Shown in pieces: positions 4,418 through 64,000 of a stretch of DNA of 64,000 bases (positions are counted from its first letter, which is position 1; each line of letters opens with the position of its first letter). Position numbers and translations under genes: made by a program. Source of the stretch: an uncultured Candidatus Saccharibacteria bacterium (GTDB lineage Bacteria; Patescibacteriota; Doudnabacteria; UBA920); NCBI GenBank assembly GCA_964532425.1, contig CAZHIA010000001.1:270846-334845 (forward strand), read 5' to 3'. The notes under the pieces are model-generated. The model did no database searches. It worked only from the letters and a program-made list of their open reading frames with translations, and was not told where the DNA came from.

Positions 4418-4431
4418 GATAGGAGGAGAAC

Positions 4432-4665: not shown

Positions 4666-4687
4666 TGTACAAACAACAACGCACTGG

Positions 4688-4718
4688 GGAAACCCGGTGC
4701 GTTTTTTTATGTGGCATT
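4688..4718 (+). terminator. rho-independent terminator
   Basis: GCACTGGGG-aaa-CCCGGTGC followed by TTTTTTT. Confidence 0.65.
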
Positions 4719-8726: not shown

Positions 8727-8990
8727 TTATTTTTTGTGACGTTTATATATACTCGCAATGAACTTGCCGAGGTGCTTGAACTTCAAGCCTTCCTGGCGGG
8801 CGTTGGCTCGTAGGTCTTCCAAATCCTGGGCCAGGTTTTCTGTTTCGGTCTTGGCGGTTTGGGATATTTTTTTGACATCCCTCAGGATCTTGATAATGTA
8901 GTAACCTACCACCGCGATTACAATGATGAACATTATGACCGCGATCGTGGTTATCACAAAAAATACATCCATTTTTATAAAGTCATTCAT
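8727..8990 (-). CDS. small membrane protein (87 aa)
   Basis: One strong TM (FFVITTIAVIMFIIVIAVVGYYIIKIL) followed by a charged coiled tail. Confidence 0.5.
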   Translation of the reverse strand: MNDFIKMDVFFVITTIAVIMFIIVIAVVGYYIIKILRDVKKISQTAKTETENLAQDLEDLRANARQEGLKFKHLGKFIASIYKRHKK

Positions 8991-9120
8991 ATGGGTATTA
9001 TACCATACTAGACGTGCCGTCCTCTCATTTTTTACCGACAGTCATGCCAATAAACTAATAGAAAGATTAAAGATAGAAAAATAGAAAGATTTGAACTGGC
9101 AACTAACATATCCTCAAATG

Positions 9121-49572: not shown

Positions 49573-49649
49573 TGGTGACCTCGGCTGGAATCGAACCAGC
49601 GGCCTTTCCCTTCGGAGGGGAACGCTCTAATCCACTGAGCTACGAGGCC
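49573..49649 (-). tRNA. tRNA-Arg (anticodon CCG), CCA encoded
   Basis: Manual fold of the minus-strand sequence GGCCTCGTAGCTCAGTGGATTAGAGCGTTCCCCTCCGAAGGGAAAGGCCGCTGGTTCGATTCCAGCCGAGGTCACCA: 7 bp acceptor, D arm GCTC/GAGC, anticodon loop CTCCGAA, T arm GCTGG-TTCGATT-CCAGC. Confidence 0.85.
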
Positions 49650-49677
49650 ATGCAAAGAATCCGTAAAATCTATTATA

Positions 49678-50148
49678 TCAAAACTTGAACCGGTGGGCAA
49701 TGCTCTGGGTAAGCGCTTCGTGTTCTTCATCGTGCTCCTTGAGGTGGGGGAGCAGGAATTGTCTGACTTCGTCGGGGTCCTGGTCCTCAAGCTCGAAAAC
49801 CAGAAAGTGGTTCAGGTAGGCAGTCGTGTGAATATTTAAAGTTTTGTGGTGAGCGTTATGCACCACCCAGAAGTGTTTGATCTGTTTATAGGGAACGAAA
49901 AGGGTCCCAAACTTAATGCCCCGGTGGTTCAGTTCGATGGTCAGCATCTGGGGTTGTTGGCGGGAAAAATAGACAATAATCGCAGCCACAACCACCATAG
50001 TTACCGCACTGAAGAATTCCCGTTGGATAATGAAGTAACCGATGACAAGGATGGCAATGGCTATAAACGTGGTGTACCAGCCCGCAGTCTTTTCGTAATG
50101 TTTGAACTCCGGCGCTTGCCAGGATAGAGTTTGGTTTTGGGATGACAT
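49678..50148 (-). CDS. membrane hypothetical protein (156 aa, two TM)
   Basis: Hydrophobic helices AGWYTTFIAIAILVIGYFII and AVTMVVVAAIIVYF. Confidence 0.5.
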   Translation of the reverse strand: MSSQNQTLSWQAPEFKHYEKTAGWYTTFIAIAILVIGYFIIQREFFSAVTMVVVAAIIVYFSRQQPQMLTIELNHRGIKFGTLFVPYKQIKHFWVVHNAHHKTLNIHTTAYLNHFLVFELEDQDPDEVRQFLLPHLKEHDEEHEALTQSIAHRFKF

Positions 50149-50163
50149 AATGTCAAATAAATT

Positions 50164-50436
50164 TTATTGGTGGCTAAAATATTCTGTAATTGCTGCGCGT
50201 ACTGCCGGGAATCGGTACTTCGTTGCAAGAAAGTCGTCCAGTGTACCGGCCTTGTACATGTGCTCCATCTCGGCAATGTCCTGGGGGAGGATCGTGTAAT
50301 CAGACCTTCCGATCACATTGTTCACCGGCTTTGTCCAGGTGGGAGGAGTAAACTTTCCGATAAAATCTTGCAGTAAAATAGCCCTGTATTCTGGATTGCC
50401 CGTTTCCCTTGCGGGTGATTGTTCTAGTTTGAGCAT
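50164..50436 (-). CDS. hypothetical protein (90 aa)
   Basis: Clean ORF co-directional with the neighbour. No domain recognised. Confidence 0.4.
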   Translation of the reverse strand: MLKLEQSPARETGNPEYRAILLQDFIGKFTPPTWTKPVNNVIGRSDYTILPQDIAEMEHMYKAGTLDDFLATKYRFPAVRAAITEYFSHQ

Positions 50437-50580
50437 GCTATAAAGACTCCAATTTTCTGCAACCCTTCGCTTAAGCTACGGGTTACACCTTTCGCTAAAG
50501 TTGCAAGTGTTGTGGCCGCAGGCGCACCCGTCGCTGTTAGCTATGGATGGCCGCAGGCCACCTGAAGCTTTAGCGAAAGG

Positions 50581-50669
50581 TGGCGGAAGGGGAGGGATTC
50601 GAACCCTCGAGGCCTTTTGGGCCTGTCGGTTTTCAAGACCGATGCACTAGACCACTATGCGACCCTTCC
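50581..50669 (-). tRNA. tRNA-Ser (anticodon UGA), class II with long variable arm, CCA encoded
   Basis: Minus-strand sequence GGAAGGGTCGCATAGTGGTCTAGTGCATCGGTCTTGAAAACCGACAGGCCCAAAAGGCCTCGAGGGTTCGAATCCCTCCCCTTCCGCCA: anticodon loop CTTGAAA, 17 nt variable arm, T arm GAGGG-TTCGAAT-CCCTC. Confidence 0.85.
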
Positions 50670-50969
50670 GTATATAATCATGAGCTGTTTTCAGTTGATG
50701 CTATCGGACCGGGTCGAATGACCCGGCAAGACCGGCACACTCGACCACTCGGCAACCTTTCCCTAAATCCTATTTATTATAGCATTTTTTGCAGAAAATC
50801 GGCAATTTTTGGCAAACTAAAACGGCCTAAACTCTAGAATATAGGCCGTTTCGTACATTGATAGGCCATGGGAATGGCCGTGGACTGCTTAAGGCAGTTT
50901 TTGCTGCCCTAATGTGTCCGCCAGATTTGAAAATCGAACGAAGGCGGACTGATCAGGGTATCAAATGTG

Positions 50970-52196
50970 TTAAGGAGCGTATTGCGGAGCGGGATCTTCA
51001 ATAATATAACCTCCCATAGTCTGTTTGCCGTCCGCTGGTTGTATGTCCGTGTCTTGTGTATTTGTTGCGGTATTCTTTGCTGGCTGTTTTAAATTCAGGG
51101 GGATCGTGCTTGTCGAAGCTGAAGGGGAAGCGGGGTTGGCGGGGGTAGTAGTCGGCAAGTTGCTGTCCGAAGTGGAGGTTCCCTTAACCGTGCCTGCCGG
51201 TTGGTTGGCGGGGTCGAGTACGGTGATCTCCCGAGCAACGATGGTGTTATTGGTCTTCTTACCCACAATATGGATTAGGGTACCGGAAGTAAGTGAGGTT
51301 GTGGCATTCCCTTCTTCATCCTGGGTGGTGGTTTCGGCGGAAAGGTAGAAAATGGTTTTTTCGATAGTTACAGAGCCTTTATCCGCCCTGGTAACAGTAC
51401 CGGACATAGTAACAATGTTCGGATCATTATTGAGTTTGGTCAGACTTTCGTCTTGGGCAACGGTTGCAATTTGGATGAGCTTGTTTACTTCCGTAACTGT
51501 CTGCGCATTCGCTTGTTGGGCTGCGGTGGCTGCATCTTGAGCTTGTACATCGGGTTTAATGGTATTCAAGAGGTTCTGTTGCTCTTTGGTAATATTCTGG
51601 AGCGAGGCAACGATCGGGTGGTCCTTAGCGGTATTCAAGTTGCTGAGCGCGGCGGTTTTAACCTCTGCGGTGGTTTGTTGGGTCTGGTTCGAGAGTTCTG
51701 CCAAGGCCGCAATCTCCAAGGCAGGGTTTTCATTGTGATTTTCAAATACCTGCCGGGCTTCGTTCATACGCCGCTGGGTAAGAGCTAATTGCAAATTTGC
51801 GCGCTCAACGGGATCATTCGTCATTTTCAATTCCAGCTGTTCAGCTGTGCGTTTGACCGCAAACAGCCGTTGTCCTGGCAGGCTGTTTATTGCGCCGTAC
51901 GCAGTGGCTCCAAAAGCCGCAAGAAGCAGCAGCATACTGGTGCTAACCGCTGCAAAACGTGAGAAGTGCATCCAGGTTGTCCAGATGCTAGCTTTGGCTG
52001 GGGCGGTCAGGTATAGTCGGCGCATGGCAGGTTCGGGGGCAGGGATGGTTGGTATCCGCATAAACGGCTCCGCGGTTTGCAACAAGCCGAGTAGGAGCTC
52101 TTTATGTTCCGGGTACTTTGAAACTATCTGGTCAGCCGGCATGCCGGACTTCAGATCTTTCAAAGCCTTATCCAAAATGTAGTCAATCTCTGCCAT
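50970..52196 (-). CDS. putative anti-sigma factor / sigma-associated single-pass membrane protein (408 aa)
   Basis: Overlaps the upstream ECF sigma gene by 14 nt. Cytoplasmic N-domain, TM (FAAVSTSMLLLLAAFGATAYGAI), long extracytoplasmic region with a T/N/Q-rich tail. Confidence 0.5.
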   Translation of the reverse strand: MAEIDYILDKALKDLKSGMPADQIVSKYPEHKELLLGLLQTAEPFMRIPTIPAPEPAMRRLYLTAPAKASIWTTWMHFSRFAAVSTSMLLLLAAFGATAYGAINSLPGQRLFAVKRTAEQLELKMTNDPVERANLQLALTQRRMNEARQVFENHNENPALEIAALAELSNQTQQTTAEVKTAALSNLNTAKDHPIVASLQNITKEQQNLLNTIKPDVQAQDAATAAQQANAQTVTEVNKLIQIATVAQDESLTKLNNDPNIVTMSGTVTRADKGSVTIEKTIFYLSAETTTQDEEGNATTSLTSGTLIHIVGKKTNNTIVAREITVLDPANQPAGTVKGTSTSDSNLPTTTPANPASPSASTSTIPLNLKQPAKNTATNTQDTDIQPADGKQTMGGYIIEDPAPQYAP

Positions 52197-52776
52197 GGTA
52201 TTTGTAGTGTAGTTCCTTCAATTTGGCGATGGCACGGTGTTGGATAACCCGGATAGCGCCTTCATTCTTTTCGAGTAAGCTGGCAATTTCATCGTTTTCC
52301 AGCTCTTCGACAAATTTCATTTTAATGACCGCTTGTTGTTCGGGGGTTAGCTCGCTTACCAGTTTTAGGAAGTATTTTTGCTCTTCCTGGAGGCTGACCA
52401 CGTCGATAAGATTCATCTCGTATTCTAACGTGTTCTCTAATTCGTCCAGTGACACGGTCATCTGTTTCTCCCGGTAGTAGTCTATTACCCGGTTTCGTGC
52501 GATCTGGTAGAGCCAGCCTTCAAAAGCGCCTTTCTCCTTGAGGCCTTTGATTTTACCGTACGCTTTTATGAACACGTCTTCAGCCAGGTCTTCCGCAATC
52601 TCCTTGTGGCCGACTCGGTAGAAAACAAAGCGGTATATTCGTTTGAAAAAGAGGTTGTACAGTTCGCCAAAGGCCGATTCTTCGCCGTGCTGGGCCCTGC
52701 CAATACAGTCATGCAAAGCCTCGATATTCTCCCCAATATTTGGCGGACTACCCCTAAAGACGTCAAATTGATCCAT
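52183..52776 (-). CDS. RNA polymerase sigma-70 factor, ECF subfamily
   Basis: Region 2 (FFKRIYRFVFYRVGHKEIAEDLAEDVFIKAY, FEGWLYQIARN) and region 4 (LTPEQQAVIKMKFVEELENDEIASLLEKNEGAIRVIQHRAIAKL). Confidence 0.85.
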   Translation of the reverse strand: MDQFDVFRGSPPNIGENIEALHDCIGRAQHGEESAFGELYNLFFKRIYRFVFYRVGHKEIAEDLAEDVFIKAYGKIKGLKEKGAFEGWLYQIARNRVIDYYREKQMTVSLDELENTLEYEMNLIDVVSLQEEQKYFLKLVSELTPEQQAVIKMKFVEELENDEIASLLEKNEGAIRVIQHRAIAKLKELHYKYHGRD

Positions 52777-53236
52777 TTTGTTACAATGCGGTTAGGTATA
52801 CTGAAAATTCAGGAAAAAAGCAAAATCCGGGAACCTTCCAGTATTTTACCATATTTCTAGGGACTACGGCTCTCTTTCCCTATACGAAATTGGGAGAGCA
52901 ATGGTCACGTACAGTACGGGTACTCAAGCTCTTAAAGAGCACAAAAGGTGTTCCATTGCAAGTTGTTTGGATGTCAGTAGACTGATTCGCCTCATTGAGA
53001 CTTTAAAAAAAATTTAATTGCTGGCAATTGAAAGCTTAAATGGCAGACTGTGTATAAAATCCTCGACTTTTCCTCTCTGCCCTTGTTACAATTATTGCTA
53101 CCAGATCATTAATCTGCATGCAGATTGGAAACAAAAATAAACGTTTCCAAAATTCCTCTTAAATCCGCACCGGGAATGCCGGAACGGTTTTTACGAGGGT
53201 ATGCACTGGCAAAATATTTAAATCAAGGAAGGAACA

Positions 53237-55159
53237 ATGGGTAACCCTTTGCTTCCCAAACAAAAACACGAATCGATTCTAAAAACAATAAAAAAAATTT
53301 CCAGCCCGGAATTCTGGTCCGCGCTGGAAATAAAAACGAGCCGTTTATTTTCTAATTTGTATCATGTAGTGACGCTCCGTGCGCCATCTACTTACAAGCC
53401 ATCCCAGCAAGTTCGGCGCGGTGCCCGTCTGGCAGTCAAACTTTCCGTTGTGGCTTTGGTTGGCACGCTGGCAGCCTTTTTGCCGCCAACGCTTGCCGGC
53501 AGACAGGCTGGACATGGTCCGGTCTCCCAGTCCATCGCTATTGCCAGTACCTGGGGGGACTCTAATATCGACATTTGGTGGCCGACTGATAGCGCCAAGG
53601 TCACCGGAGTCCAGCCCTTTAAAGCGGTGGTTAATAACCGGGCTATCGACCAGTACCGCATGGTCTGGCAGGTGGACGGCGGACAGCAAAATCAGATGGC
53701 GACCAGCATGCAGGATTGGCCGCACAAAGAAACCAATGTCGATTTGACCGGGTGGAATTGGAAAGGGAGTGGTCCGTATACGCTTTCGTTCACTGCTTTT
53801 GACAATTCCGGGTCGCAGATTGGACAGAAGTTCGAAGTTATTTATATTACGAGCGGGCAGTCCGCACCGGTAGTATCAACGCCTGCTCCCGTGAAAGCCA
53901 TCGCTCCTGCACCAATCCAAGCAGCAACTCTATCGCAACAAAAGCTGGATGTGTGGTGGCCGACCAACAATGTTTCGGTTTCCGGTACGCTGCCGGTCAA
54001 GGCTATGCTCGAGAATACGGCGGTTACGGATTACACCATGACCTTCAGGGTCGGTAGCGGTCCCGAGCAGGACATGGGCACAAACTATTCCGATTATCCT
54101 CACAAAGAAACGTCTGCCAACACGAGTCAGTGGGGCTCAGGCAGCGTTACTTTGAACTTTACGGCTAAGAACGTGGCTGGACAGGTAATAGGCACCAGCT
54201 CGGTTACGGTGAATGTCCAAACACCTGCTGGACAGCCGGCGGCAACTGCCGCTACCCAACCGGCTGCGGTGCCAGTTTCTGGAAATCCATTCAGCGGGGC
54301 CAAGCTGTTCGTGGATCCCAATAGTGATGCGAAAAAACAAGCTGATGCGTGGCGCTCCAGTCAGCCGCAAAACGCTTCCTTCATGGATAAGATTGCGAAC
54401 CAGCCTACGACTTTCTGGATGGGTAATTGGAATAGCGATATTACCGGTGACACGCGCCGGAATGTCCAGGCGGCCCAGTCCCAGGGTGCCATGCCCGTGT
54501 TCGTGGCTTATAATATCCCGCAGCGCGATTGTGGCGGGTATTCAGCCGGTGGCAGCGGTAGCCCGGATGCATATAAGCAGTGGATCCGCAGCATGGCCGC
54601 AGGCATCGGTTCTGCCAAATCGGCTGTGATCATCGAGCCGGATGCCATCGCTCTGATTGATTGTCTGTCTGGGAGCGACCAACAAACCCGGTACAGCCTT
54701 ATTCGCGACGCAGTGTCAGTGTTTAAGTCGCTTGGCAATACCGCGGTCTACATCGACGCGGCCCATCCGGGGTGGCTCTCTGTCGGTGACATGGTTTCGC
54801 GTTTGAAGAATGCCGGTATCGACCAAGCTGACGGTTTTTCCCTGGATATCTCGAACTTCTATACGACGCAAGACAATGTGAATTACGGAACCTCCATCTC
54901 AAACCAAGTTGGCGGCAAACATTTTGTCGTCGATACGGGGCGCAACGGAAACGGTCCGACGCCGGATTATCAGTGGTGCAACCCTTCAGGTCGTGCCCTC
55001 GGCCAGCGGCCGACTACCGCCACCGGAAACGCCCTGGTTGATGCTTATTTGTGGGTCAAAGGACCGGGCGGCAGCGACGGCAACTGCAACGGCGGACCGA
55101 ATGCCGGAGTCTTCTGGCCGGATTACGCATTAGGGCTTGCACAAAGAGCCTCTTGGTAG
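53237..55159 (+). CDS. secreted glycoside hydrolase family 6 (cellulase/endoglucanase) with two N-terminal roughly 100 aa beta-sandwich repeat domains
   Basis: The C-terminal roughly 300 aa align motif by motif with Cel6A-type GH6 as I recall it: VFVAYNIPQRDCGG, VIIEPDAIALI, VYIDAAHPGW, VVDTGRNGNGP, WCNPSGRALG, DAYLWVKGPGGSDG. Two tandem WWPT...V(S/T)G..P(F/V)KA... modules precede it. Confidence 0.8.
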   Translation: MGNPLLPKQKHESILKTIKKISSPEFWSALEIKTSRLFSNLYHVVTLRAPSTYKPSQQVRRGARLAVKLSVVALVGTLAAFLPPTLAGRQAGHGPVSQSIAIASTWGDSNIDIWWPTDSAKVTGVQPFKAVVNNRAIDQYRMVWQVDGGQQNQMATSMQDWPHKETNVDLTGWNWKGSGPYTLSFTAFDNSGSQIGQKFEVIYITSGQSAPVVSTPAPVKAIAPAPIQAATLSQQKLDVWWPTNNVSVSGTLPVKAMLENTAVTDYTMTFRVGSGPEQDMGTNYSDYPHKETSANTSQWGSGSVTLNFTAKNVAGQVIGTSSVTVNVQTPAGQPAATAATQPAAVPVSGNPFSGAKLFVDPNSDAKKQADAWRSSQPQNASFMDKIANQPTTFWMGNWNSDITGDTRRNVQAAQSQGAMPVFVAYNIPQRDCGGYSAGGSGSPDAYKQWIRSMAAGIGSAKSAVIIEPDAIALIDCLSGSDQQTRYSLIRDAVSVFKSLGNTAVYIDAAHPGWLSVGDMVSRLKNAGIDQADGFSLDISNFYTTQDNVNYGTSISNQVGGKHFVVDTGRNGNGPTPDYQWCNPSGRALGQRPTTATGNALVDAYLWVKGPGGSDGNCNGGPNAGVFWPDYALGLAQRASW

Positions 55160-55200
55160 GACACAGATGAACACTGATTCAAAACAGATAAACACGGATA

Positions 55201-55232
55201 AAGGCCGGCGCTATTGCGCCGGCCTTTTTTGT
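55201..55232 (+). terminator. rho-independent terminator
   Basis: AAGGCCGGCGC-tatt-GCGCCGGCCTTTTTTG. Confidence 0.75.
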
Positions 55233-55313
55233 TTACTGTATCGAAAATCGCTTGACAGAAAGGGAAAACGGTATATGATAAGGTGAAATCATAGTTAGGC
55301 GAAGGAGGGAAAG

Positions 55314-55694
55314 ATGGAAAGGGTGCGGGTATTTTTGGTAGAAGACGACCCCTCTGTGCGGGAAGTCATAAAGGCATTTCTTTCTGAAGATGAACATGCA
55401 GTAGTATTGGAGGCGGCCACACTGGAAGATGCTTTACGGAAAATCCGTGAAGGAAATCTGGAGACCGCAAATATCACGGTGGCAATCGTCGACGGATATT
55501 TGCCGAAAAGCTCGGAAGACAGGAAAGAGGTGTGGGGTGGACCGGATGTCGCTCAGGCCATTCGAGCCAGCCATATGGGTGTGAAAATCATCTCCTTTAG
55601 CTCAAGACCCGAAGAATATTGCCGCTATGGCGATATTCACCTCAGCAAGGACTGCGGTGCGGGTAAACTGCTAGAAACGATGGCCTCGATTTGA
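55314..55694 (+). CDS. single-domain response regulator (CheY-like receiver)
   Basis: VRVFLVEDDPSVREVIK (acidic pocket), the phospho-acceptor Asp context AIVDGYLP, and a conserved Ser/Lys later. No output domain. Confidence 0.55.
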   Translation: MERVRVFLVEDDPSVREVIKAFLSEDEHAVVLEAATLEDALRKIREGNLETANITVAIVDGYLPKSSEDRKEVWGGPDVAQAIRASHMGVKIISFSSRPEEYCRYGDIHLSKDCGAGKLLETMASI

Positions 55695-55716
55695 AGATTG
55701 GCTTATATGCCTTAGC

Positions 55717-55746
55717 GCGGAACATTCGTGTTCCGCGTTTTCATTT
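55717..55746 (+). terminator. rho-independent terminator
   Basis: GCGGAACA-ttcg-TGTTCCGC followed by GTTTTCATTT. Confidence 0.6.
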
Positions 55747-55814
55747 GTTTGAAAGGGATTTAAAAATTTGTCACCAAAGAAAAAATGGCACCGCGAGGCG
55801 GTGCCATTTGGAGG

Positions 55815-56333
55815 TTACTTGAGCGATTCGGGCAGAATGCTCTTGATCCGTTCCTTCAGGAACGAACTGATAAAACTTTCAAGCTTGATGAGCGCATCGG
55901 CGAAATCATCGAATACGATCTCGGCTATCACCGCAGGATTGCCGCGGATAAGCCGACTGATGAGCCTTTGTTCCAGACGGTTCCGCTGATGAAGAAGAAC
56001 AACAGGCTTGGCGGCGTGGTTCGCTATCTCGATCTCTTCACCGACACCGAACGAAGGATTATCGGTTACGGCAATGACAAGCTCCGCTGAGGTCACCGCG
56101 GTTCGGTCGATAAGATCGACCTGCGCCGGGGTGACGTGCTTATGCCGTACGGGATCAGTGTTGAGATGGGGTACGTACGCTATAAGTTCCAGGCTTTCGA
56201 CCAAACGGCCGATCGCTTCGTAGAACTCAAGGTACCGAGGGCGAATATCCGCCGGGACGTCGCTGAGCGCGCCGGAAATGTAAACAAGTTTGTTCATGAC
56301 GATCTCCTTTAGAGGAAAAGGAGGATTCGCCAC
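55815..56333 (-). CDS. nucleoside 2-deoxyribosyltransferase-like (Rossmann) family protein; probable start at 56297 (MNKLVYISG)
   Basis: Architecture VYISGA ... SAELVIAVTDNPSFGVGEEIEIANHAAKPVVLL matches the NDT-like D..G..fE.G.A.a.gKPv pattern. Confidence 0.4.
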   Translation of the reverse strand: MANPPFPLKEIVMNKLVYISGALSDVPADIRPRYLEFYEAIGRLVESLELIAYVPHLNTDPVRHKHVTPAQVDLIDRTAVTSAELVIAVTDNPSFGVGEEIEIANHAAKPVVLLHQRNRLEQRLISRLIRGNPAVIAEIVFDDFADALIKLESFISSFLKERIKSILPESLK

Positions 56334-56417
56334 ATTAGGGAAGGCCCAAAAAGGGCCGCATTAAGGACAGCTACTCCTCGGGTTAGTGGTTTGCAAACAT
56401 CGGTGAGAATGTCCGCA

Positions 56418-56870
56418 TTATGCTGTACAAGACAAGAAAATATACTGGCCCGGCGATCCCGTGCTTTCCAGAAGGCTGATGATATGGCCTTCGTCATCCG
56501 GGTCTGGTGGTGAGCTCGTGACGCGCAGCCTCCAGCATGGAGCTGTTTGGGACTGGTCAGAGGTGCACTGTAATTTCCAATACCTCACACCTCGCTTGTC
56601 ACACTCTTCACTGAGTTCCGCGGCAAATCCATCGTACGCAGTGCGCGAACTGAAACCCATGCGCACCCAGGGAATGAGTGTCCCGATTCCGTTGCCAAAC
56701 AGAAGGTATTCCTTGGACCGCAAGATGCTGCCGTCTTTGGGTTGTGCTCCACAGGCTTTGAGTGCGAGCGCATTACTGTCAAGCGGCTGCATGTTGTAGG
56801 GATAGAGCTGGTCAAAAAAACTATAAGGTACAAATGCCCGAATACGTCTCATAGTCCTCCTTTGTTGCAT
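56418..56870 (-). CDS. hypothetical protein (150 aa)
   Basis: ORF with no recognised motifs. An alternative start exists at MRRIRAF. Confidence 0.35.
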   Translation of the reverse strand: MQQRRTMRRIRAFVPYSFFDQLYPYNMQPLDSNALALKACGAQPKDGSILRSKEYLLFGNGIGTLIPWVRMGFSSRTAYDGFAAELSEECDKRGVRYWKLQCTSDQSQTAPCWRLRVTSSPPDPDDEGHIISLLESTGSPGQYIFLSCTA

Positions 56871-56940
56871 CTTTACCCGTCCAGTAATATGGACAGTAAG
56901 GACTTCTTAGTATACCAAAAGTATAGAAAATGTCCAGAAT

Positions 56941-56976
56941 CGAAAAACTTCGACACTATTCAGTGTCGAAGTTTTT
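56941..56976. terminator. bidirectional terminator hairpin (perfect 15 bp stem) at the 3' end of the minus-strand glycosyltransferase operon
   Basis: AAAAACTTCGACACT-attc-AGTGTCGAAGTTTTTT. Confidence 0.7.
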
Positions 56977-57005
56977 TCTCTTTTTAGGTACGCGTCCATT
57001 TAAAC

Positions 57006-57036
57006 CTGTAGGGGCAGATCCCGACCCGTCTCTGCA
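57006..57036. repeat. REP-like element CTGTAGGGGCAGATCCCGACCCGTCTCTGCA
   Basis: Shares the CTGTAGGGG head with REP copies at 9219 and 23626. Confidence 0.45.
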
Positions 57037-57093
57037 ACTATTCGCTCTTCGTTCGGCTCTCTTCACTATTTACTTCGCACTCTTCGCTTGTGA

Positions 57094-57849
57094 TTATTTA
57101 TACCCGAACTTCTGCCATTCATTGTAGTAATAGAACAGTTCGCGGAAGGCACGGAAAATGACGTCCAGTTTGGCTCCGGTCGGTTTGCCGGCCGTGCGGG
57201 GGTAGTGGTTTACCCCTACTTCCGCGATCTTAAATCCGTTCTTTTGGGCTTTGACCAACAGCTCTGTGGAAATCATGGCCCCAGTGGTTTGGAGTCGGAA
57301 TTTTTGAAAAACTTGCCGCCGGACAATCTTGAAGCCGCAATCGATGTCGCGCACGCCATGAAGGCGGAACAAGTTGATGACCAAGGTTTTCCAAGCCCAT
57401 GAATTGAACTTGCGCAGTGTATTATCCGCGCGTTTGATGCGATACCCGATGACAAGGTCATAAGCAGGCATGAATGGCAGGAATTTTTCGATTTCCGCCA
57501 CGTCAAATTGGCCGTCACTATCGGTAAAGAATATCCACTCCATTTTTGCTGCGGCAAAGCCCGAGGCGAGCGCTGCGCCATAGCCGCGATTCGTTTCGTG
57601 CCTCACGAGACGGATTTTTGGATTATATTCTGACATTCGAGCGACAATTTCGGGTGTCCGATCCGTACTGCCGTCATCAACGATGATAATCTCATAGTCC
57701 TGGGATATTTGCCAAAGTACCGCACTCGTGCGGTCGATAACCCGGGCGATATTATCCTGCTCATTATATGCCGGGAAAAAAGCTGTGATAGTGGGGCGGT
57801 TGGTCTCAATTTCCTCTGGTCTTACTGATTCGGTGGTCTGATGTGGCAT
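57094..57849 (-). CDS. GT2 family glycosyltransferase, polyprenol-phosphate mannose/glucose synthase (Ppm/DPM1-like)
   Basis: ITAFFPAYNEQDNIARVI, IIIVDDGSTDRT, the DxD context FFTDSDGQFD. About 250 aa, typical for the Dpm1-type enzyme. Confidence 0.8.
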   Translation of the reverse strand: MPHQTTESVRPEEIETNRPTITAFFPAYNEQDNIARVIDRTSAVLWQISQDYEIIIVDDGSTDRTPEIVARMSEYNPKIRLVRHETNRGYGAALASGFAAAKMEWIFFTDSDGQFDVAEIEKFLPFMPAYDLVIGYRIKRADNTLRKFNSWAWKTLVINLFRLHGVRDIDCGFKIVRRQVFQKFRLQTTGAMISTELLVKAQKNGFKIAEVGVNHYPRTAGKPTGAKLDVIFRAFRELFYYYNEWQKFGYK

Positions 57850-57900
57850 ACCGCTCCTTTCGTGATTAATTACTCATTGTTTTATGGGTGTTCCCGTTAG

Positions 57901-57929
57901 GTAGGGGCGGGTTTGAAACCCGTCCCTAC
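57901..57929. repeat. REP-like hairpin GTAGGGGCGGGTTTGAAACCCGTCCCTAC
   Basis: Same family as 9219 and the RAYT-associated REPs. Confidence 0.6.
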
Positions 57930-57968
57930 GGATATGTTTATTCTGTGGTGCATGGTTATGGTTGATTG

Positions 57969-59528
57969 TCATTGATACCGCAATTTGTATACGTACAAGT
58001 CCATTCCGGGCGAGAAATTTTTAGCTTCCAGCCGCTGGTAGTGAGTATCAAAGTAATTTTTAACTTCTTGTTGGTATCCCTGATCGTACGACAGTAGCAG
58101 ATAGATATTCTGGTGTCCGGCAGTTACTTGAGCAACTTCTGACGGGAACGTTTCCGGTACATATGGCGGTATGCCTCCGACGACAAAGCGATTCCATATG
58201 GGTAGCGTGTTCACCGCGGCCGAACCGGTGTAATAATATTCGAACGGGTAGACAGTAAATGGAGCAGAGAGCGCTACGACATCTTGCGGGGTAGCTTCCG
58301 ACGCGATGTATGCCGCCGCATCACGATAATCTTCCTTGACCGGTGTGCTGGCACTGGCAATCTGGGTGGCGAGGGTTGCTCCCATAACGCTGACCAATAC
58401 GATCCTCATTACATACGCCAGGGGTTTTGGGTAAATAGAAAAGAACCAAGCTATAAATATATAGAGTGCAGGGGTGGCGAGGATGAGATACCTCGAAAGG
58501 AAAATCGGCCTGAAGGAGACGCTGACTAAAAATGCTGCTGTCACGGGGAAAATGGCGGCAATGAACAGATATATCGCCGGCAGGTTCAAGGCTTTGACCT
58601 TTCTGAGGGATAGGAAACCGAACAGTACCGCGAGCGGCCAAAGCGATAGAATGATGGTATTTAAGTGGTCGTTTTGGAAGCCGAATAGGTACTCGGAATA
58701 GGCGCTGAATAAGTTGACTGTAGTAGGTTTGAACAGCAGAGGCTGTTCGGTACTGGCAAAACCCAAATGTTTAACATAGTACAGCCAGGGAGCTATGGCT
58801 GCGATGAGAATTAATCCTACGACCACGAACCGTTGCAAGGAATTGATGGGAAAGTGTTTCCTATACAGGAGGAAAAAGAGTCCCTGGCCTCCCAGGACAA
58901 ACCAGAAAAAATAGTGGGAGTAAATGCCAAGGAGCGACGAGATGCAGAATCCAACCCAGTACCACGAGAGTGTTTCGGACCGAGCCGGGCCCCGAAAGTT
59001 CAGGATTTTCAAAAAGAACAGTTGACTCAATATCGTGCATAGCACCATAAGACTGTACATTCGTATCTCATTGGCATACCAATTCATGAATGGGGAAATG
59101 GTGAGCAAGAGGGTGGCAAAAATTGCGGTGCCGCGAGAAAAGGAAGTTCGCGCCAGGAGGTACATGGCTGGGATAGAAAGCAAAAAGAATATAAGGGAAA
59201 AGGCTCGGATCGTATCTACAGAATTACCGAGCCAAAGGATCCAGAAATGCAGCGCAAAACCATACAGCGGAAGATGGACATCCTGGCCGATCGTATGCAG
59301 GAACCCTCTCGGGTTATGGCTGCTCTGCCAGATACTTTGAGCTTCGTCGAGCCTGAGACTCTGTCCGAAAAGAAAGAAATGGGAAATAGCGAACGCAGCC
59401 AGCATGCACAAGACGATAAATCCGACTGTTGCGGCCGTGCGGAGTGCCTGCGACCCGTTGCGTGCCGAAAGCTCCTCTTTTTGGATAGCGGGATACCGGG
59501 GATTGATTTCTACGGTAGTGGTAGTCAT
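57969..59528 (-). CDS. GT-C fold membrane glycosyltransferase (ArnT/PMT, GT39/GT83-like)
   Basis: At least 10 TM helices. An acidic DE motif (RLDEAQSIW) sits in the first extracytoplasmic loop, as in ArnT/Pmt enzymes. Large C-terminal soluble domain. Confidence 0.55.
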   Translation of the reverse strand: MTTTTVEINPRYPAIQKEELSARNGSQALRTAATVGFIVLCMLAAFAISHFFLFGQSLRLDEAQSIWQSSHNPRGFLHTIGQDVHLPLYGFALHFWILWLGNSVDTIRAFSLIFFLLSIPAMYLLARTSFSRGTAIFATLLLTISPFMNWYANEIRMYSLMVLCTILSQLFFLKILNFRGPARSETLSWYWVGFCISSLLGIYSHYFFWFVLGGQGLFFLLYRKHFPINSLQRFVVVGLILIAAIAPWLYYVKHLGFASTEQPLLFKPTTVNLFSAYSEYLFGFQNDHLNTIILSLWPLAVLFGFLSLRKVKALNLPAIYLFIAAIFPVTAAFLVSVSFRPIFLSRYLILATPALYIFIAWFFSIYPKPLAYVMRIVLVSVMGATLATQIASASTPVKEDYRDAAAYIASEATPQDVVALSAPFTVYPFEYYYTGSAAVNTLPIWNRFVVGGIPPYVPETFPSEVAQVTAGHQNIYLLLSYDQGYQQEVKNYFDTHYQRLEAKNFSPGMDLYVYKLRYQ

Positions 59529-59594
59529 GGTTCTGATCCAGTTAAGATCTTAGTTCGATAGGAGATTATTTCTTTTGCTGCGGTGCGTGCTGGT

Positions 59595-61244
59595 TCACTC
59601 AATTCGGCGGGTGATTGGACGGGATATGCGGAGGTTTCGGTTGTACAGTGCCGGTCGGCTTGTGGAAAAACCCGGAGCGCGGCCTATCGGGTTTCCTGCG
59701 GCGGATAGTGCGGGTTTGGACTGGTAGGTGATTTGTGCTTCGCTGAGCTCTGACTCGGAAGGGAGGGCTGCAAATATGAATGGGACAAACGCTGCCGCGT
59801 TGAACATGGCCCAGCTTAGATTTGTGATTACTGCGGCGCTCGCACCCTCGCGGACAATGGCAACGAAGACGCCGGACAGAATCAGTCCGAAATAGAGCAG
59901 GTGGGGAATGACGAGTTTGATGTAATTCCCGGACTGTCGCTTTTTAGCCGTCACGGAAAAACCGCTCTTCTGATTGGTCAAGACCGCCCAAAGTGCCTGC
60001 AGATGGATCGTAAATGATCCCATGGAGAATGCGAGCGCCCGGAAGGTGTACGCATCGTTGCTTGATAGCCGCAAAATGATCACGTTCAGAAAGATATATG
60101 GCATAAAAATCGCTGCCACCGCCATGGTCGAGTTCTGGACTGGCACCAGCCCGGTAAAAAAGAAAATGATCGGGAGCAGTGCGTTCATCAGGACGATTGC
60201 ACCGGAAAAGTAGTAACTTGCCGAAGCGAGATATTGTACTTTTTGTCTGAATGACAAACCTTTCCGAAAGAGAGGGTTGAAGCGGAACATGACCTCTAGG
60301 CTGCCCCTGGCCCAGCGGAATTGCTGCTTGTAGTAAGACTGAAAATCCTCTGGTGCTAAACCCTCAGCCAGCACATCCGGCACGTAGACGGATTTCCAGC
60401 CTTGCTCATGAATGAACAAGGAGGTGAGAAAATCTTCTGCAATATTAAATTCGCACATGCCGCCGACTCCAAGCATGGCGCTGCGGCGCATGACCATGTT
60501 CGTTCCGCACATGAATGTGCTATTGAGCCGGTTTTTCCCTTTGCAGATGGGGCCAAAGAATAACTCCTGTTGTTCCCAGGCGCCCTGGGTAATCTCATTT
60601 AACTCATAATTTTTGTAGTATTGCGGAGACTGGACAAATCCGACCGCTGAGTCTGCAAAGTACCCTACCGTCTTTTCCAGAAAGTCGGGATGAGGTACCT
60701 GGTCGGCATCAAAAATCGCGACGAGCGGGCTGCTCGTCTGACGTAATCCGTTGTTGAAATTTCCAGCTTTGGCGCCTCCCGCAACCGTGCGGGTTATGCA
60801 GGTAATGCCGAGTCTTTGTGCCAGTTCCTCTATGTCTTTCCAATTTGGTTTCTTGGCGACGTAGCCGTCATTGAGCAGGTAGACATGGAAATCCGGGTAT
60901 TGCATTGCAAGGGCGGCTCTGGCCGTCTGCTCAACGATCTCTACCGGTTCCCCGGCTGCAGTAATAAACACATCTACTGCGGGCCGGTGGGTCTGGTCGA
61001 AGCGGGCCGAATACTCCATATCCCAAACCGTATAGAGATAGGTGAATACAAGCCAGAGGTGAAATATCTCGCCGGCTACAAGGAGCCAGAATAGAACCGG
61101 GTTGCCCGGCGTGAATCGGAGTAGGAGCAGTCCAAAGTACAGGAACGCAAAAAGCCCGGTCAGTGCCAACAGGATGCGATTGCGTCGCGCATCTAAAAAT
61201 TCGGTTGAAGGGAGGAATAATATCCTTTTGGCTTGGGTATCCAT
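59595..61244 (-). CDS. processive GT2 beta-glycosyltransferase, cellulose-synthase-like (BcsA/CesA/NodC-type catalytic core, no PilZ domain)
   Basis: Motifs in order: LNDG (DDG-like), AIFDADQVP (DxD), NIAEDF (TED-like), QQFRWARG (QxxRW). 2 N-terminal and 4-5 C-terminal TM helices. Confidence 0.7.
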   Translation of the reverse strand: MDTQAKRILFLPSTEFLDARRNRILLALTGLFAFLYFGLLLLRFTPGNPVLFWLLVAGEIFHLWLVFTYLYTVWDMEYSARFDQTHRPAVDVFITAAGEPVEIVEQTARAALAMQYPDFHVYLLNDGYVAKKPNWKDIEELAQRLGITCITRTVAGGAKAGNFNNGLRQTSSPLVAIFDADQVPHPDFLEKTVGYFADSAVGFVQSPQYYKNYELNEITQGAWEQQELFFGPICKGKNRLNSTFMCGTNMVMRRSAMLGVGGMCEFNIAEDFLTSLFIHEQGWKSVYVPDVLAEGLAPEDFQSYYKQQFRWARGSLEVMFRFNPLFRKGLSFRQKVQYLASASYYFSGAIVLMNALLPIIFFFTGLVPVQNSTMAVAAIFMPYIFLNVIILRLSSNDAYTFRALAFSMGSFTIHLQALWAVLTNQKSGFSVTAKKRQSGNYIKLVIPHLLYFGLILSGVFVAIVREGASAAVITNLSWAMFNAAAFVPFIFAALPSESELSEAQITYQSKPALSAAGNPIGRAPGFSTSRPALYNRNLRISRPITRRIE

Positions 61245-61415
61245 GGGAGGTGAAATAATTAACTAGTGGGGTAGGGGGTAGAGTAGCACGCACCAGGATC
61301 AATTATATATAGCATATGAGCATGGGAGGCGAGGCGGCAGGCAAAATTTTTTGTTTTCCGCCTTGCCTTCGTAAGAATATTTTTAAGCGGACTTTTTAAG
61401 TATCAATCCTAATCC

Positions 61416-62645
61416 TTAGTGAGCAGAATCGGCTGTAGTGGTCGTGGCAGGATAGAGGTTGGCGAGTAGGTTATTATAGAGGGCCAATCCGAACCATGAC
61501 CAGTTATCGTCGTAGTAACTCATCTCGGTTCCCCATGATTGGCTGTCGGGATTGTAGAGCGTTAGGAGTTTTTGCTGGTAGATATTTTTAGCCTGCGCAG
61601 GGTTTTCCGTGACAAAATAACCGAGACTGCCTCCGTACATGGCCGGGGTTTCCAGCGTGGAGAGTTGTTGGCCGTCATGCGCATATGCGGTGTAGAGCAC
61701 ATGGTCATTCTGCCAACTCGAGCCCAGCGCGGAGAATTTTTCCAGTATGCTCTTGTCTCTCGGATCCTTATACCACTCATAATCCAAGGCAAGCCGCCAG
61801 GGGGTACGCAGGGCATCGTAACTGTAGTTGGTTGTCAGTGTGCTGGAAGCGGTTGGCACCGCTGTGAGTTCTCCCGTTGTTTTATTGATTGCTACCCAGT
61901 CTGGAGGCAGCCCGGCAGCTGACTGCTTGTCCAACTTTTGTACTGTCGACTGCTCAAGAACCGTATAGGAGGTATCCACTACCTTTTGCCAGTCATGTTG
62001 GGGATCTATCTGGGCAAAGATGCGGTAGGAATAGGGGGAATAGTAGGATGGATTCAAAACCGCTACCGACGAAGCCGGGCCACCTTCGACATTATCTGCA
62101 ACCAAATACGGCTCGCCTTGTATCGGTATTACCTCGCGGGCCCATATATCGCCGATAATTTGTTTCGCCTGGTCCAAATATCGCGGATCTTGCCATCGCT
62201 GTGAGGCGAAGACAAGCGCCAAGGCGATATCAGTATCGGCGTCGGCTGCCGAATTTTGGCCTCCTTGCTGGCTCAAGACACCCACCGAACCGTCCGGGCG
62301 CTTACCGTACAGCCAGGAAAACAGATGGTCGTTTTGATGCTTCAAGTTGGACTGTGTCCATTCCCATGTCTTGTCAAATGTGGTTTTATCGTCTATCCAA
62401 ACGGCACGGAGCATCGTATAACTTTGCCCTTCAGAAGTAGTGATGTCGTTGCGTTGCCGGTCGAGCGTGCGGCCGGTCGAGGAATCCCAATAGACTTGTT
62501 TATAGGTATTCCACAAGGCGCTGACCATGCCTTGGGGAGAATAGACCAGCGGTTGTTGCCGCCTCTGATTGTTGTGGTAAAGTACGGCGGTAAAAATTAC
62601 GGCCCCAAGAAGTATGAGGAATAAACCGATTAACTTATATTTCAT
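61416..62645 (-). CDS. glycoside hydrolase family 8 (endoglucanase, BcsZ-like)
   Basis: N-terminal membrane anchor. GH8 signature region SEGQSYTMLRAV ... ADADTDIALALVFASQRW. Confidence 0.8.
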   Translation of the reverse strand: MKYKLIGLFLILLGAVIFTAVLYHNNQRRQQPLVYSPQGMVSALWNTYKQVYWDSSTGRTLDRQRNDITTSEGQSYTMLRAVWIDDKTTFDKTWEWTQSNLKHQNDHLFSWLYGKRPDGSVGVLSQQGGQNSAADADTDIALALVFASQRWQDPRYLDQAKQIIGDIWAREVIPIQGEPYLVADNVEGGPASSVAVLNPSYYSPYSYRIFAQIDPQHDWQKVVDTSYTVLEQSTVQKLDKQSAAGLPPDWVAINKTTGELTAVPTASSTLTTNYSYDALRTPWRLALDYEWYKDPRDKSILEKFSALGSSWQNDHVLYTAYAHDGQQLSTLETPAMYGGSLGYFVTENPAQAKNIYQQKLLTLYNPDSQSWGTEMSYYDDNWSWFGLALYNNLLANLYPATTTTADSAH

Positions 62646-62690: not shown

Positions 62691-63356
62691 CTATTTAAAC
62701 GAAAAATGCGCGGTGCGGATTACTTGGCGCGTTCGTCTGGCTTTAGTGGCGCCCGCAAAAAGGGCGATGCCGAACAGGACGCATGCAGCTGCTGCGCCAT
62801 TCAGTATGTTGGTGGCCTTAGTGCTGAGCGGGGTGAAAGTATAAGGAGAATAGGTTAAGAGAGGTTCCCAGACATTAAGCAAGGGCACGGAGAAATCGGA
62901 GATGGCAGCCAGGGTTTCTCCGGCAGATACTGAACTGGCTCTGGGCAGTTTAAAGTTAAAAGCAAGTTCACTTGCTGCCGGTGCAGTTTTCACTGCGGTC
63001 TTTGTTCCGACTTTACGCGGGGCTGGAGTGCGTGGTGCAGTTGGTGCGGACGGCTGGGTAGTGTTGTCTGTTGCAGAGGTTGCTGGCTGGTCTTGGGGTA
63101 CCGCGGGGTCAGCCGGTTCCGGCTCCTGGCCAGGGGGCATTTGCAGACCGGAAGGCATTTGCAGACTTGGTGGGTCTTGAAGGTTGCTGTCTGTGGCAGA
63201 TTGGCGTGCCGGGTCAGAGGTGGTCGTCCCGGCTTGCTCTGTGGTTGTCGTACTGGTGTCAGCGGCACGGACTAATATGGCCGCACCGAATAACCCGGTT
63301 GCCACCAGGAGAAAGAGAGCCGCACCATAGTAAGGCAATCGGGAGGAAGTTCGCAT
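62691..63356 (-). CDS. secreted Thr/Pro-rich hypothetical protein with C-terminal TM anchor (first gene of the glycan operon)
   Basis: Signal peptide, T/P/Q-rich low-complexity region, C-terminal hydrophobic helix AAAACVLFGIALFAGA followed by a basic tail. Confidence 0.45.
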   Translation of the reverse strand: MRTSSRLPYYGAALFLLVATGLFGAAILVRAADTSTTTTEQAGTTTSDPARQSATDSNLQDPPSLQMPSGLQMPPGQEPEPADPAVPQDQPATSATDNTTQPSAPTAPRTPAPRKVGTKTAVKTAPAASELAFNFKLPRASSVSAGETLAAISDFSVPLLNVWEPLLTYSPYTFTPLSTKATNILNGAAAACVLFGIALFAGATKARRTRQVIRTAHFSFK

Positions 63357-63563
63357 AGGGAAGAAGGATAAGTGATCGTTAATGTAATTGACGGTACATA
63401 TAATTTTTCCTTACGCCTTGAGCAGCTTTTTCACCCATAGGAATAAGCAAAAGCGAAAATATTTTATGAAACACAACTGATGTTTTGTACGTATTATGAT
63501 TAACACATTTTAACCAACAACACTCAAGATACTTGACTGTAGAAATGGTTGTTTATTACAAAT

Positions 63564-63600
63564 AAAATTCCCAATAGTCGTAAAGACTATTGGGAATTTT
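63564..63600. terminator. bidirectional terminator-like hairpin AAAATTCCCAATAGTC-GTAAA-GACTATTGGGAATTTT
   Basis: Perfect 16 bp stem flanked by an A4 and a T4 run. Confidence 0.6.
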
Positions 63601-63961
63601 ATAGCCTTGTACCAGTCATCCGCCTCAGGCGGATGCCGGTACAGGGCATGAACCACTGGCCGATAGAAGCGTTCGTATTAAAGACACAGCTTTATGGCTG
63701 TGCCATGATACCCGATCCGCCAGAGGCGGAGAGTGGTTCATGGCGGAGAGGGAGGGATTTTCGTCTCGGCTCTCTGCTGAAAGCCTCGTTGTCCGGGGCA
63801 GCTGAAGGGGGAGGGATTCGGTCGCCCACGGCGGACTTTCAACTCCCTCCGGTCGTTTCAAGTCTCGCCTAGCGCGACCCCGCCGCTATTATTTGCTCGC
63901 TTGCTCGCAAATAATTTTTCCCTTCGGGAAAACCGCTCTTTTCGAATCCCCCTTCCAATAT
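63601..63961 (-). ncRNA. candidate structured non-coding RNA (roughly 360 nt, GC-rich, unknown class); strand assignment tentative
   Basis: No credible ORF. UUCG-tetraloop hairpin TTTTCCC-TTCG-GGAAAA. Long-range complementarity ATGAACCACTGG / CCAGTGGTTCAT. Several local GC hairpins. Bounded by two covarying hairpins (63564 and 63962). On the minus strand it would end at the 63600 hairpin plus a U tract. Confidence 0.25.
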
Positions 63962-63998
63962 AAAATGACCAATTGCCGTAAAGACAATTGGTCATTTT
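63962..63998. terminator. bidirectional terminator-like hairpin AAAATGACCAATTGCC-GTAAA-GACAATTGGTCATTTT
   Basis: Same architecture and loop as 63564..63600, with compensatory changes in the stem. Confidence 0.55.
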
Positions 63999-64000
63999 AT

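Follow-up and report, generated by a model that had tools for sequence, protein, structure and literature searches.

At the right-hand end of the 64,000-nucleotide (nt) stretch of Doudnabacteria DNA analyzed here (the window; contig CAZHIA010000001.1), two paralogous hairpins, T1 and T2, enclose a GC-rich tract of 361 nt. We conclude that this tract most likely does not encode a catalytic or regulatory RNA, whether known or novel. Judged from its sequence, there is about an even chance that it is a recombination scar, a mosaic of pseudo-tRNA pieces at a tRNA-Ser locus that is insulated by terminator-like hairpins. Its pieces would stem from repeated recombination and insertion at a tRNA gene, together with local duplications in direct and inverted orientation. 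Site-specific integration and excision, or the activity of an endonuclease cassette, are candidate causes; either would leave displaced tRNA fragments behind. The high GC content and strong folding of the tract would then be inherited from tRNA stems and inverted duplications, and not selected for a new RNA function. An earlier note on this DNA had proposed a novel structured RNA, a riboswitch-like leader, or a mobile RNA element; we do not favor this proposal because no homologue of the tract was found in the collections searched and a relative has a normal tRNA-Ser(GCU) with a different trailer in the same place.

tRNA-Ser-derived pieces in the tract

Four features of the tract bear on its relationship to tRNA-Ser:

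63741 to 63763, minus strand: fragment (i), CGAAAATCCCTCCCTCTCCGCCA, a tRNA-Ser T-loop remnant followed by the 3' strands of the T stem and acceptor stem, a discriminator G, and CCA
63800 to 63887, minus strand: stretch (ii), a degenerate tRNA-Ser-like stretch with a D-arm-like UCGC-GCUAG-GCGA, ending in CGAATCCCTCCCCCTTCAGC
63821 to 63840, minus strand: a 20-nt insert, GAAAGUCCGCCGUGGGCGAC, which splits a T-loop-like sequence between UU and CGAAU, forms the palindrome GUCCGCC-GUG-GGCGAC, and is the source of GAAAGUCC
63941 to 63956, plus strand: piece (iii), TTCGAATCCCCCTTCC, a possible inverted 3'-end copy, which is a weak match that includes a 3-nt gap (E = 0.08, small search space)

Much of the GC-rich sequence probably derives from tRNA-Ser. 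At the sequence level, two copies of a tRNA-Ser 3' end constitute solid evidence of tRNA ancestry. Within fragment (i), positions 63759->63741 (minus) agree with the consensus of 84 tRNA-Ser sequences at 19 of 19 positions and are identical to the tRNA-Ser(UGA) 3' end in the closest available genome, a Candidatus Doudnabacteria metagenome-assembled genome (MAG; L003, which is the same as L005). The same positions match the window's own tRNA-Ser(UGA) at 17 of 19. The second copy, CGAATCCCTCCCCCTTCAGC (63820->63801, minus), shares 18 of 20 positions with the window's tRNA-Ser(UGA) 3' end. Displaced tRNA fragments are recognized as copies of the 3' portion of a tRNA, in tRNA orientation, at a tRNA locus; this description applies to both 63759->63741 and 63820->63801, the locus being given by synteny with the MAG.

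Broader comparisons favor the same strand. Local alignment of the minus strand of the tract with the two tRNA-Ser(UGA) genes gave z = 4.8-5.0, with 0 of 300 shuffles as good, versus z = 0.8 (window gene) and 3.2 (L005 gene; 2 of 300 shuffles) for the plus strand. When a profile of the 84 tRNA-Ser sequences was searched over the whole window with nhmmer, the real tRNA-Ser ranked first, followed by an orphan tRNA-Ser-like 5' half (E = 0.011), tract positions 63867->63806 (E = 0.053), the real tRNA-Arg (E = 0.23), and tract positions 63759->63741 (E = 0.36), and both tract matches were on the minus strand. A tRNA-Ser covariance model scored the tract at 10.5 bits (E = 1.4), the real tRNA-Ser at 93.2, and the tRNA-Arg at 50.5.

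Stretch (ii) contains a T-arm-like GGAGGGA...UCCCUCC at 63850->63810 and an anticodon-loop-like heptamer, CUUGAAA, at 63862->63856 without a flanking stem (both minus). Reading the minus strand of the tract revealed neither a U-GCU-R context nor a serine anticodon in a 7-nt, U33-containing loop on a 5-bp stem. The longer reading of stretch (ii) as a pseudo-tRNA is plausible but statistically marginal; by its sequence, the stretch is tRNA-derived and has lost the tRNA fold. A functional tRNA was rejected, as the tract had no match to the Rfam family RF00005 at E<=10 and ARAGORN was negative both with introns of up to 3000 nt and at an 85% threshold. At 80%, ARAGORN made a single call (63631-63722, minus, anticodon undetermined), which lies away from the tRNA-like pieces. 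We also considered 63916-63940 as a tRNA-Arg anticodon arm and treated the match as chance (E = 0.02 in a tiny search space, z = 1.7).

The tract resembles bacterial tRNA pseudogenes in having D-arm-like, anticodon-loop-like, and T-arm/acceptor-like parts of a tRNA-Ser while failing tRNA covariance models. It differs from them in that its T loop is broken by a 20-nt palindrome, its anticodon stem and variable arm are absent, and its acceptor-like helix is formed with an inverted copy 150 nt distant.

The orphan 5' half lies at 50728-50762 (minus), about 60 nt upstream of the intact tRNA-Ser(UGA), and comprises an acceptor strand, a D arm, and a 5' anticodon stem ending in ...GGTCTT; the covariance model gives it 14.3 bits. 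The same orphan 5' half occurs at 20130-20166 of L005, upstream of the MAG's tRNA-Ser(UGA), and is followed there by TCCGCC...GGCGGA.

Synteny with a Doudnabacteria genome

The genomic context also places the tract at a tRNA-Ser locus. Homologues of the GH8 gene near the tract belong to Patescibacteria (the Candidate Phyla Radiation, CPR), with a best full-length identity in databases of ~59%. The Doudnabacteria MAG is collinear with the window over ~14 kb, in the order GH8, cellulose-synthase-like GT2, PMT_2, GT2, GH6, sigma-70 (ECF-type), DUF5667, tRNA-Ser(UGA), a 156-aa gene, and tRNA-Arg. Among the GH8 relatives from a genome scan, this MAG is the only one with the tRNA-Ser context; four further, more distant relatives have PPDK-type genes upstream instead. 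In L005, an intact tRNA-Ser(GCU) (8769-8859) precedes the genes for the small membrane protein and GH8; it has a good promoter and is followed by a structured trailer of ~200 nt and a terminator. The tract fills the equivalent slot in the window.

The collinear block corresponds to window positions 49573-62645, and the two genomes that share it have just ~58% identity in GH8. The 221-aa small membrane protein adjoining the tract had no homologue in our searches and was not alignable to its 199-aa counterpart in L003. Among the genes checked over ~14 kb to the left of the tract, none encodes a transposase, integrase, or endonuclease.

Structured trailers are a further feature of these loci. The L005 trailer of ~200 nt is found in three places (8860-9060, 20348-20475, and 20475-20650), after both tRNA-Ser(GCU) and tRNA-Ser(UGA) and in tandem after the latter. 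One of its hairpins is UCCGCC-UCG-GGCGGA in one form and CGUCCG-CGU-CGGACG in another, so that the sequence has changed and the hairpin has been kept. The L005 region 8769-9100, comprising tRNA-Ser(GCU) and trailer, has a folding z of -5.6. In the window, a trailer of ~130 nt (50450-50580, minus) directly follows tRNA-Ser(UGA) and is closed by a 14-bp helix (CCUUUCGCUAAAG/CUUUAGCGAAAGG); the z of its minimum free energy (MFE) is -5.1, and its only Rfam match is a sub-threshold one to sX4 that includes the tRNA. The best matches of an L005 trailer profile in the window fall in the tract (TCCGCCTCTGGCGGATCGGG and the UUUUCCC hairpin) and are not significant (E = 1.6; range 0.5-4). We do not claim the left half of the tract as a homologue of the L005 trailer at such values (E = 0.5-4).

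Weighing the proposed recombination scar

Several observations weigh against a recombination scar. Outside the two 3'-end copies, the similarity to tRNA is marginal (nhmmer E = 0.05; covariance E = 1.4), and no intact partner tRNA, integrase, or endonuclease is visible up to the end of the window at T2. A relic in an AT-rich spacer ought to lose GC and gather mismatches. Its main weakness as an explanation is thus that the tract helices are perfect despite the AT-rich spacer around them, which means that the tract is either young or selected for structure. Furthermore, the palindrome TCCGCC-NNN-GGCGGA recurs in tRNA-Ser-like copies of unrelated contigs (L050, L099, L112, and L005). A scar leaves this recurrence unexplained, and the recurrence itself hints at a specific process. 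Nor does a scar directly explain why T1 and T2 are paralogous.

Displaced tRNA fragments mark sites of integration, according to the Islander work (PMC4383910), and scattered partial tRNAs, including tRNA-Ser(TGA), have been described as remnants of older integrations (bioRxiv 10.1101/2020.12.28.424599). Like the fragments at integration hot spots (the tDNA att repeats of the Islander concept and the "partial tRNAs" of tycheposon islands), the tract has a direct 3' copy, running from T loop to CCA, beside native downstream sequence. Its fragments are clustered, as they are there, and tRNA-Ser is a known target. Unlike at integration hot spots, none of integrase, island, or regenerated tRNA is seen here, where our view stops at the window end. 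The tract fragments also lie ~60 nt apart and not kilobases, and they sit within palindromes and a decayed, near-full-length tRNA-like copy.

If the tract is a recombination scar, it carries a caution for RNA discovery: tRNA debris and local inverted duplications can yield a GC-rich, strongly folding tract with "covarying" hairpins in AT-rich Patescibacteria without a new RNA gene. It would also mark the tRNA-Ser loci of this lineage as recombination-prone, given the orphan 5' half, the duplicated trailers, and the displaced 3' ends.

The bracketing hairpins

The tract is bounded by two related hairpins:

63562 to 63602, minus strand: hairpin T1, with an 11-bp core stem, a 5-nt loop, and A and U runs that extend it to 18 pairs
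63960 to 64000, minus strand: hairpin T2, a paralogue of T1 with 83% identity to it, reaching the window end at 64000

Two hairpins with a shared GTAAA-loop pattern had been noticed earlier in this place, and they are indeed present; the full repeat unit is 41 nt long and 83% identical. The pattern AAAAT-NNN-CAAT-NNN-C-GTAAA-G-NNN-ATTG-NNN-ATTTT occurs at exactly 2 sites in the 64 kb, with 0 expected from 100 shuffles. The compensatory stem changes that had been reported between the hairpins also hold: each hairpin forms its full set of 18 pairs on the minus strand; 14 pairs are invariant, and three differ by two-sided changes (U-A/G-C, C-G/A-U, and A-U/U-A). The remaining change is one-sided, from U-A to U-G on the minus strand, and its plus-strand equivalent is a C-A mismatch. 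Slid controls gave 0-1 compensated pairs, and 53 of 500 shuffles reached the observed covariation, which, coming from two sequences alone, is not statistically strong. The compensatory changes would reflect selection on the hairpins proper and not on the tract they enclose.

Predicted folding energies are -24 to -25 kcal/mol for T1 on either strand, and -23.2 (minus) versus -19.1 kcal/mol (plus) for T2, a difference of ~4 kcal/mol. U-rich tails follow on the minus strand, UUUUAUUUGU for T1 (its best tail) and UUUUAUAUUG for T2. T1 and T2 are probably best regarded as paralogous hairpins resembling intrinsic terminators, predicted to work best on the minus strand, which is the strand of all neighboring genes. 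T1 is located upstream of the promoter region of the 221-aa gene and would halt read-through ahead of the 221-aa/GH8 operon promoter, and T2 would halt an upstream unit located past the window end.

In being stable stem-loops between an A run and a U run that separate transcription units, T1 and T2 resemble bidirectional Rho-independent terminators. They differ from these in that their stems are AU-rich, with G-C pairs at 5-6 of 11 positions, and in that they are paralogous to one another, unique in the window, and missed by a simple consensus scan. That scan listed neither hairpin, the U run being absorbed into the stem.

Architecture and folding

Between the hairpins and beside the tRNA-like pieces, the tract contains these further features:

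63604 to 63647: palindrome HpA, 44 nt, with the tip AUCCGCC-NNN-GGCGGAU and helices of 10 bp and 8 bp
63648 to 63741: a long-range domain closed by a 10-bp helix (I6), holding the hairpin 63683-63704 and the 5' arm of HpB
63702 to 63744: palindrome HpB, 43 nt, an imperfect paralogue of HpA with arms 75% complementary (I5)
63764 to 63799, minus strand: a linker with small hairpins, containing CAGCAGAGAGCC (63768-63779)
63888 to 63915 and 63916 to 63932: two perfect local hairpins, AUUAUUUGC...GCAAAUAAU and UUUUCCC-UUC-GGGAAAA, as predicted by folding

The description of this segment as GC-rich, self-complementary, and non-coding stands up well. Its GC content is 56%, compared with 32% in the spacer at 63357-63561 and 51% in the window, and its MFE is -159.7 (plus) and -160.4 (minus) kcal/mol, with z = -6.1 and -5.8, respectively, and 0 of 100 shuffles as good; the coding tests described below gave no support for a protein. 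A long-range pairing had been placed at 63647..63658 with 63732..63744 and given as 12 nt; the pairing is real, and its extent is a perfect 10 bp, 63648-63657 with 63732-63741. The UUCG tetraloop hairpin that had been proposed did not survive folding: at 63916-63932 the best fold is a 7-bp stem with a UUC triloop, and the cUUCGg reading keeps only 2 G-C pairs. A 9-bp pairing of 63947-63955 with 63804-63812 closes a right-hand domain of 152 nt.

Every part of the tract has a local paralogue, either as a direct repeat (D1-D3) or as an inverted repeat (I4-I8). The paralogous sets are T1/T2, HpA/HpB, the two tRNA-Ser 3'-end copies, and the inverted pairs that form the long-range helices. HpA and HpB form direct repeat D2 (73%), and both are tipped by AUCCGCC-NNN-GGCGGA; palindromes of the HpA type occur only in the tract within the window. 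The first arm of HpB, GCCAUGAACCACUCUCCGCC (minus), opens with the GCCA of the displaced tRNA 3' end and includes a further CUCUCCGCC. The six bases that precede the terminal A at the 3' end of tRNA-Ser are TCCGCC, to which GGCGGA is complementary. In the linker, CAGCAGAGAGCC might, on the letters alone, be read as a tRNA-Ser 5' start (GAGAG-CCGAG) fused to the fragment 63763->63741.

The predicted helices are 9-10 bp long and perfect, stability is equal on either strand, and G-U pairs number just 8 (plus) and 4 (minus) among ~115. A strand-specific RNA under long-term selection usually differs from such strand-symmetric folding. Thus, because the helices are almost all Watson-Crick and equally stable on the two strands, inverted duplication at the DNA level fits better than a strand-specific RNA.

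A less likely alternative, which we would still take seriously, is that the tract encodes a lineage-specific, tRNA-Ser-derived structured RNA, expressed from the minus strand in two domains and ending at T1. Its synthesis would depend on read-through or on a promoter past T2. Possible roles are those of a stable spacer or trailer RNA, a substrate processed by RNase P or RNase Z, or a decoy or docking platform for a protein that binds tRNA-Ser. The folding z of about -6 and the maintenance of 56% GC inside a 32% spacer are in keeping with such an RNA, and the terminator tails of T1 and T2, together with the U-G pair of T2, favor the minus strand. The other tRNA-Ser genes of the lineage carry long structured trailers (z = -5.1 in the window; z = -5.6 for the L005 region), the L005 trailer is present three times with one hairpin altered in sequence yet kept, and the tract contains the window's best, albeit non-significant, matches to its profile (E = 1.6). 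However, stability is equal on both strands with hardly any G-U pairs, the covariance model indicates that the tRNA fold is not retained, and no promoter was found, including no sigma-70-like promoter on the minus strand between T2 and the tract. There is also no tract homologue in the collections searched, and hence no covariation evidence for an RNA. The earlier note had named a lack of conserved structure in related genomes as a result that would count against it; the genome, metagenome, viral, phage, and plasmid collections contained no tract homologue, so structural conservation of the tract cannot be shown. A riboswitch-like reading of the plus strand, from a promoter-like site at 63540-63568, was rejected because promoter-like sites are no more numerous there than in shuffles.

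Structured tRNA 3' trailers and spacer-derived RNAs are known, for example the E. coli 3'ETS-leuZ. The structured sequence that directly follows the tRNA 3' end and runs up to a terminator, as seen after the tRNA-Ser genes of the window and L005, is similar to these. The tract differs in having no functional tRNA upstream within view.

Known RNA families and coding potential

That the tract is a divergent member of a known large RNA class, such as RNase P RNA, transfer-messenger RNA (tmRNA, including two-piece forms), a T-box or other riboswitch, 6S RNA, or signal recognition particle (SRP) RNA, can be regarded as effectively refuted. Its length of ~360 nt suits RNase P RNA or tmRNA, GAAAGUCC and CAGCAGAGAGCC have RNase P-like spacing, GGAUUCGA lies close to the 5' end of the minus strand, and the tract has an internal ...GCCA. 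A cmscan comparison of the whole window with 4227 Rfam 15 families, which had been suggested as a check, returned no more than the two real tRNAs at gathering score; with permissive filters at E<=10, it returned nothing relevant, only noise, for 63300-64000. No family therefore matched the tract, and the identities RNase P, tmRNA, riboswitch, 6S, SRP, and HEARO-type RNA have no Rfam support at E<=10. This result also bears out the earlier judgment that an RNase P call was unsupported, and it confirms that the tract is not RNase P RNA.

More specific tests agree with this outcome. One-piece and permuted tmRNA were rejected by a negative ARAGORN tmRNA mode and the lack of any tmRNA-clan match in Rfam; the internal CCA end has a discriminator G and a serine-type acceptor strand with no G3-U70, and so no alanine identity. 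A riboswitch or T-box leader was set aside because there was no significant match to an Rfam cis-regulatory family; any plus-strand gene that it might control would fall outside the window. The RNase P-like motifs reported on the minus strand are present, at 63830-63843 (GTTGAAAGTCCGCC) and 63768-63779 (CAGCAGAGAGCC), but the first of them is part of the disrupted tRNA-Ser T-arm-like site. An RNase P P4 helix was rejected because, by reading, no complementary ACNNNANNNNGNNUA-type strand lies downstream on the minus strand; GAAAGUCCGCC pairs locally instead, as GUCCGCC-GUG-GGCGAC or with GGCGAGACUU. In comparison with RNase P RNA (RF00010/RF00011), the tract is similar in length and has GAAAGUCC-like and ACAGAGAGC-like motifs ~60 nt apart. 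It differs in lacking a covariance match, the CR-V/P4 partner, and the J11/12 or J12/13 elements, and its GAAAGUCC motif is accounted for as part of the insert within a tRNA-derived, T-arm-like site.

A small protein-coding gene on either strand is extremely improbable. Open reading frames (ORFs) of 107 aa (plus) and 78 aa (minus) do span the tract. However, Pfam had no match to these or to a 45-aa ORF (minus), and the 107-aa ORF had no homologue among 5.8 billion proteins. The 78-aa ORF matched only 3 tandem-repeat proteins, through summed weak matches driven by the repeats (single pairwise E ~0.01). The 107-aa and 45-aa ORFs have never been called as genes in any assembly on record, and the former starts at a TTG before T1 and runs through T1 and ~270 nt of paired tract. 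The claim that the tract is non-coding thus faces no significant coding match on either strand.

Mobile elements and other tRNA-Ser loci

The tract is, in our view, quite unlikely to be a small, non-autonomous mobile element or one end of an element that has integrated here. The ends of such an element would be either the two hairpins or the inverted tRNA-like repeats at 63941-63956 and 63801-63820, and it would be mobilized in trans by a hairpin-recognizing transposase, a tRNA-targeting integrase, or a GIY-YIG-type endonuclease cassette. Like the ends of transposons with hairpin recognition, T1 and T2 keep the loop, the flanks, and CCAAT/ATTGG and differ in the remaining stem, and TTAC stands immediately 5' of T1. 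The organism occurs in the sequencing runs SRR11567520 and SRR11567528; the only other assembly of the region, Logan unitig L001 (SRR11567528), ends at window position 63890, the 5' edge of the tRNA-like stretch. This break is compatible with a repeat or a polymorphism and could reflect a second copy, strain polymorphism, or merely low coverage, but unitig breaks have many trivial causes. The contigs L099 and L112 bear tRNA-like units with a T-loop palindrome beside a small ORF, with a GIY-YIG domain in L112. On the other hand, the tract is single-copy in 64 kb, no member of the hairpin family turned up in the metagenome or viral collections searched, no transposase, integrase, or endonuclease was among the leftward genes checked, Rfam had no match to HEARO or other element-associated RNAs, and the hairpins resemble ordinary bidirectional terminators with A and U tracts. 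An IS200/IS605-type derivative or a HEARO/omega RNA was likewise rejected, given a single copy, no TnpA, TnpB, or IscB among the neighbors checked on the left side, and no HEARO match.

Searches of other collections gave no homologue of the tract. A metagenome scan for the terminator-hairpin family gave 0 matches, and nhmmer found no tract homologue among >120 metagenome tRNA-Ser loci. These loci had been fetched with a pattern consisting of a tRNA-Ser 3' end and a CCGCC-NNN-GGCGG hairpin, and they are mostly ordinary tRNA-Ser genes with a terminator. Because the pattern demanded the palindrome after the tRNA-Ser end, its frequencies among them are meaningless; replacement of loops was not demanded. 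Three patterns run against viral collections gave no matches or chance matches only, and phage and plasmid BLAST searches with the tract gave no match. About 15 of the fetched tRNA-Ser genes have a direct partial 3'-end copy 50-500 nt downstream.

It is conceivable, if quite unlikely, that the tract belongs to an undescribed class of tRNA-Ser-derived elements in which loops are replaced or split by UCCGCC-NNN-GGCGGA and which would spread or persist beside tRNA-Ser in several unrelated lineages. Its members would differ in the site affected: a T-loop-like site in the tract, the D and anticodon loops in L050, the T loop in L099 and L112, and the trailers and orphan 5' half in L005. They would be either transcribed, protein-binding tRNA-like RNAs or the footprints of a mobile cassette that targets tRNA-Ser. 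If true, this minority view would point to an uncharacterized family of tRNA-Ser-derived elements sharing one palindrome across distant bacteria.

Some of the fetched loci have unusual arrangements of their own. In L099 (reverse, ~440-640) and L112 (reverse, ~4250-4700), a tRNA-Ser is followed by 1-2 tRNA-like units of ~70 nt that end in ...CCTCCGCCA and have a T loop interrupted by CCGCC-GRA-GGCGG; a small ORF and then a further TTCGAATCCGCC-GAA-GGC... repeat come next. The small ORF of L112 encodes a GIY-YIG domain (Pfam E = 3e-11), and that of L099 was read by eye only. By its sequence, the arrangement looks like an endonuclease cassette associated with tRNA-Ser. In the last ~250 nt of L050 (Ga0209515_10001677; reverse strand), a real tRNA-Ser(GCU) lies between pseudo-copies of tRNA-Ser that have TCCGCC-NNN-GGCGGA where the D loop should be; one of the copies has this palindrome in place of its anticodon loop as well. 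In five low-GC contigs (L042, L071, L089, L126, and L127), tRNA-Ser is directly followed by a hairpin pair, GCCGCC-NNN-GGCGGC and then AAAAGGCGGATGCCGG...CCGGCGCCGC; L042, L126, and L127 contain at least one further full or partial copy of the pair.

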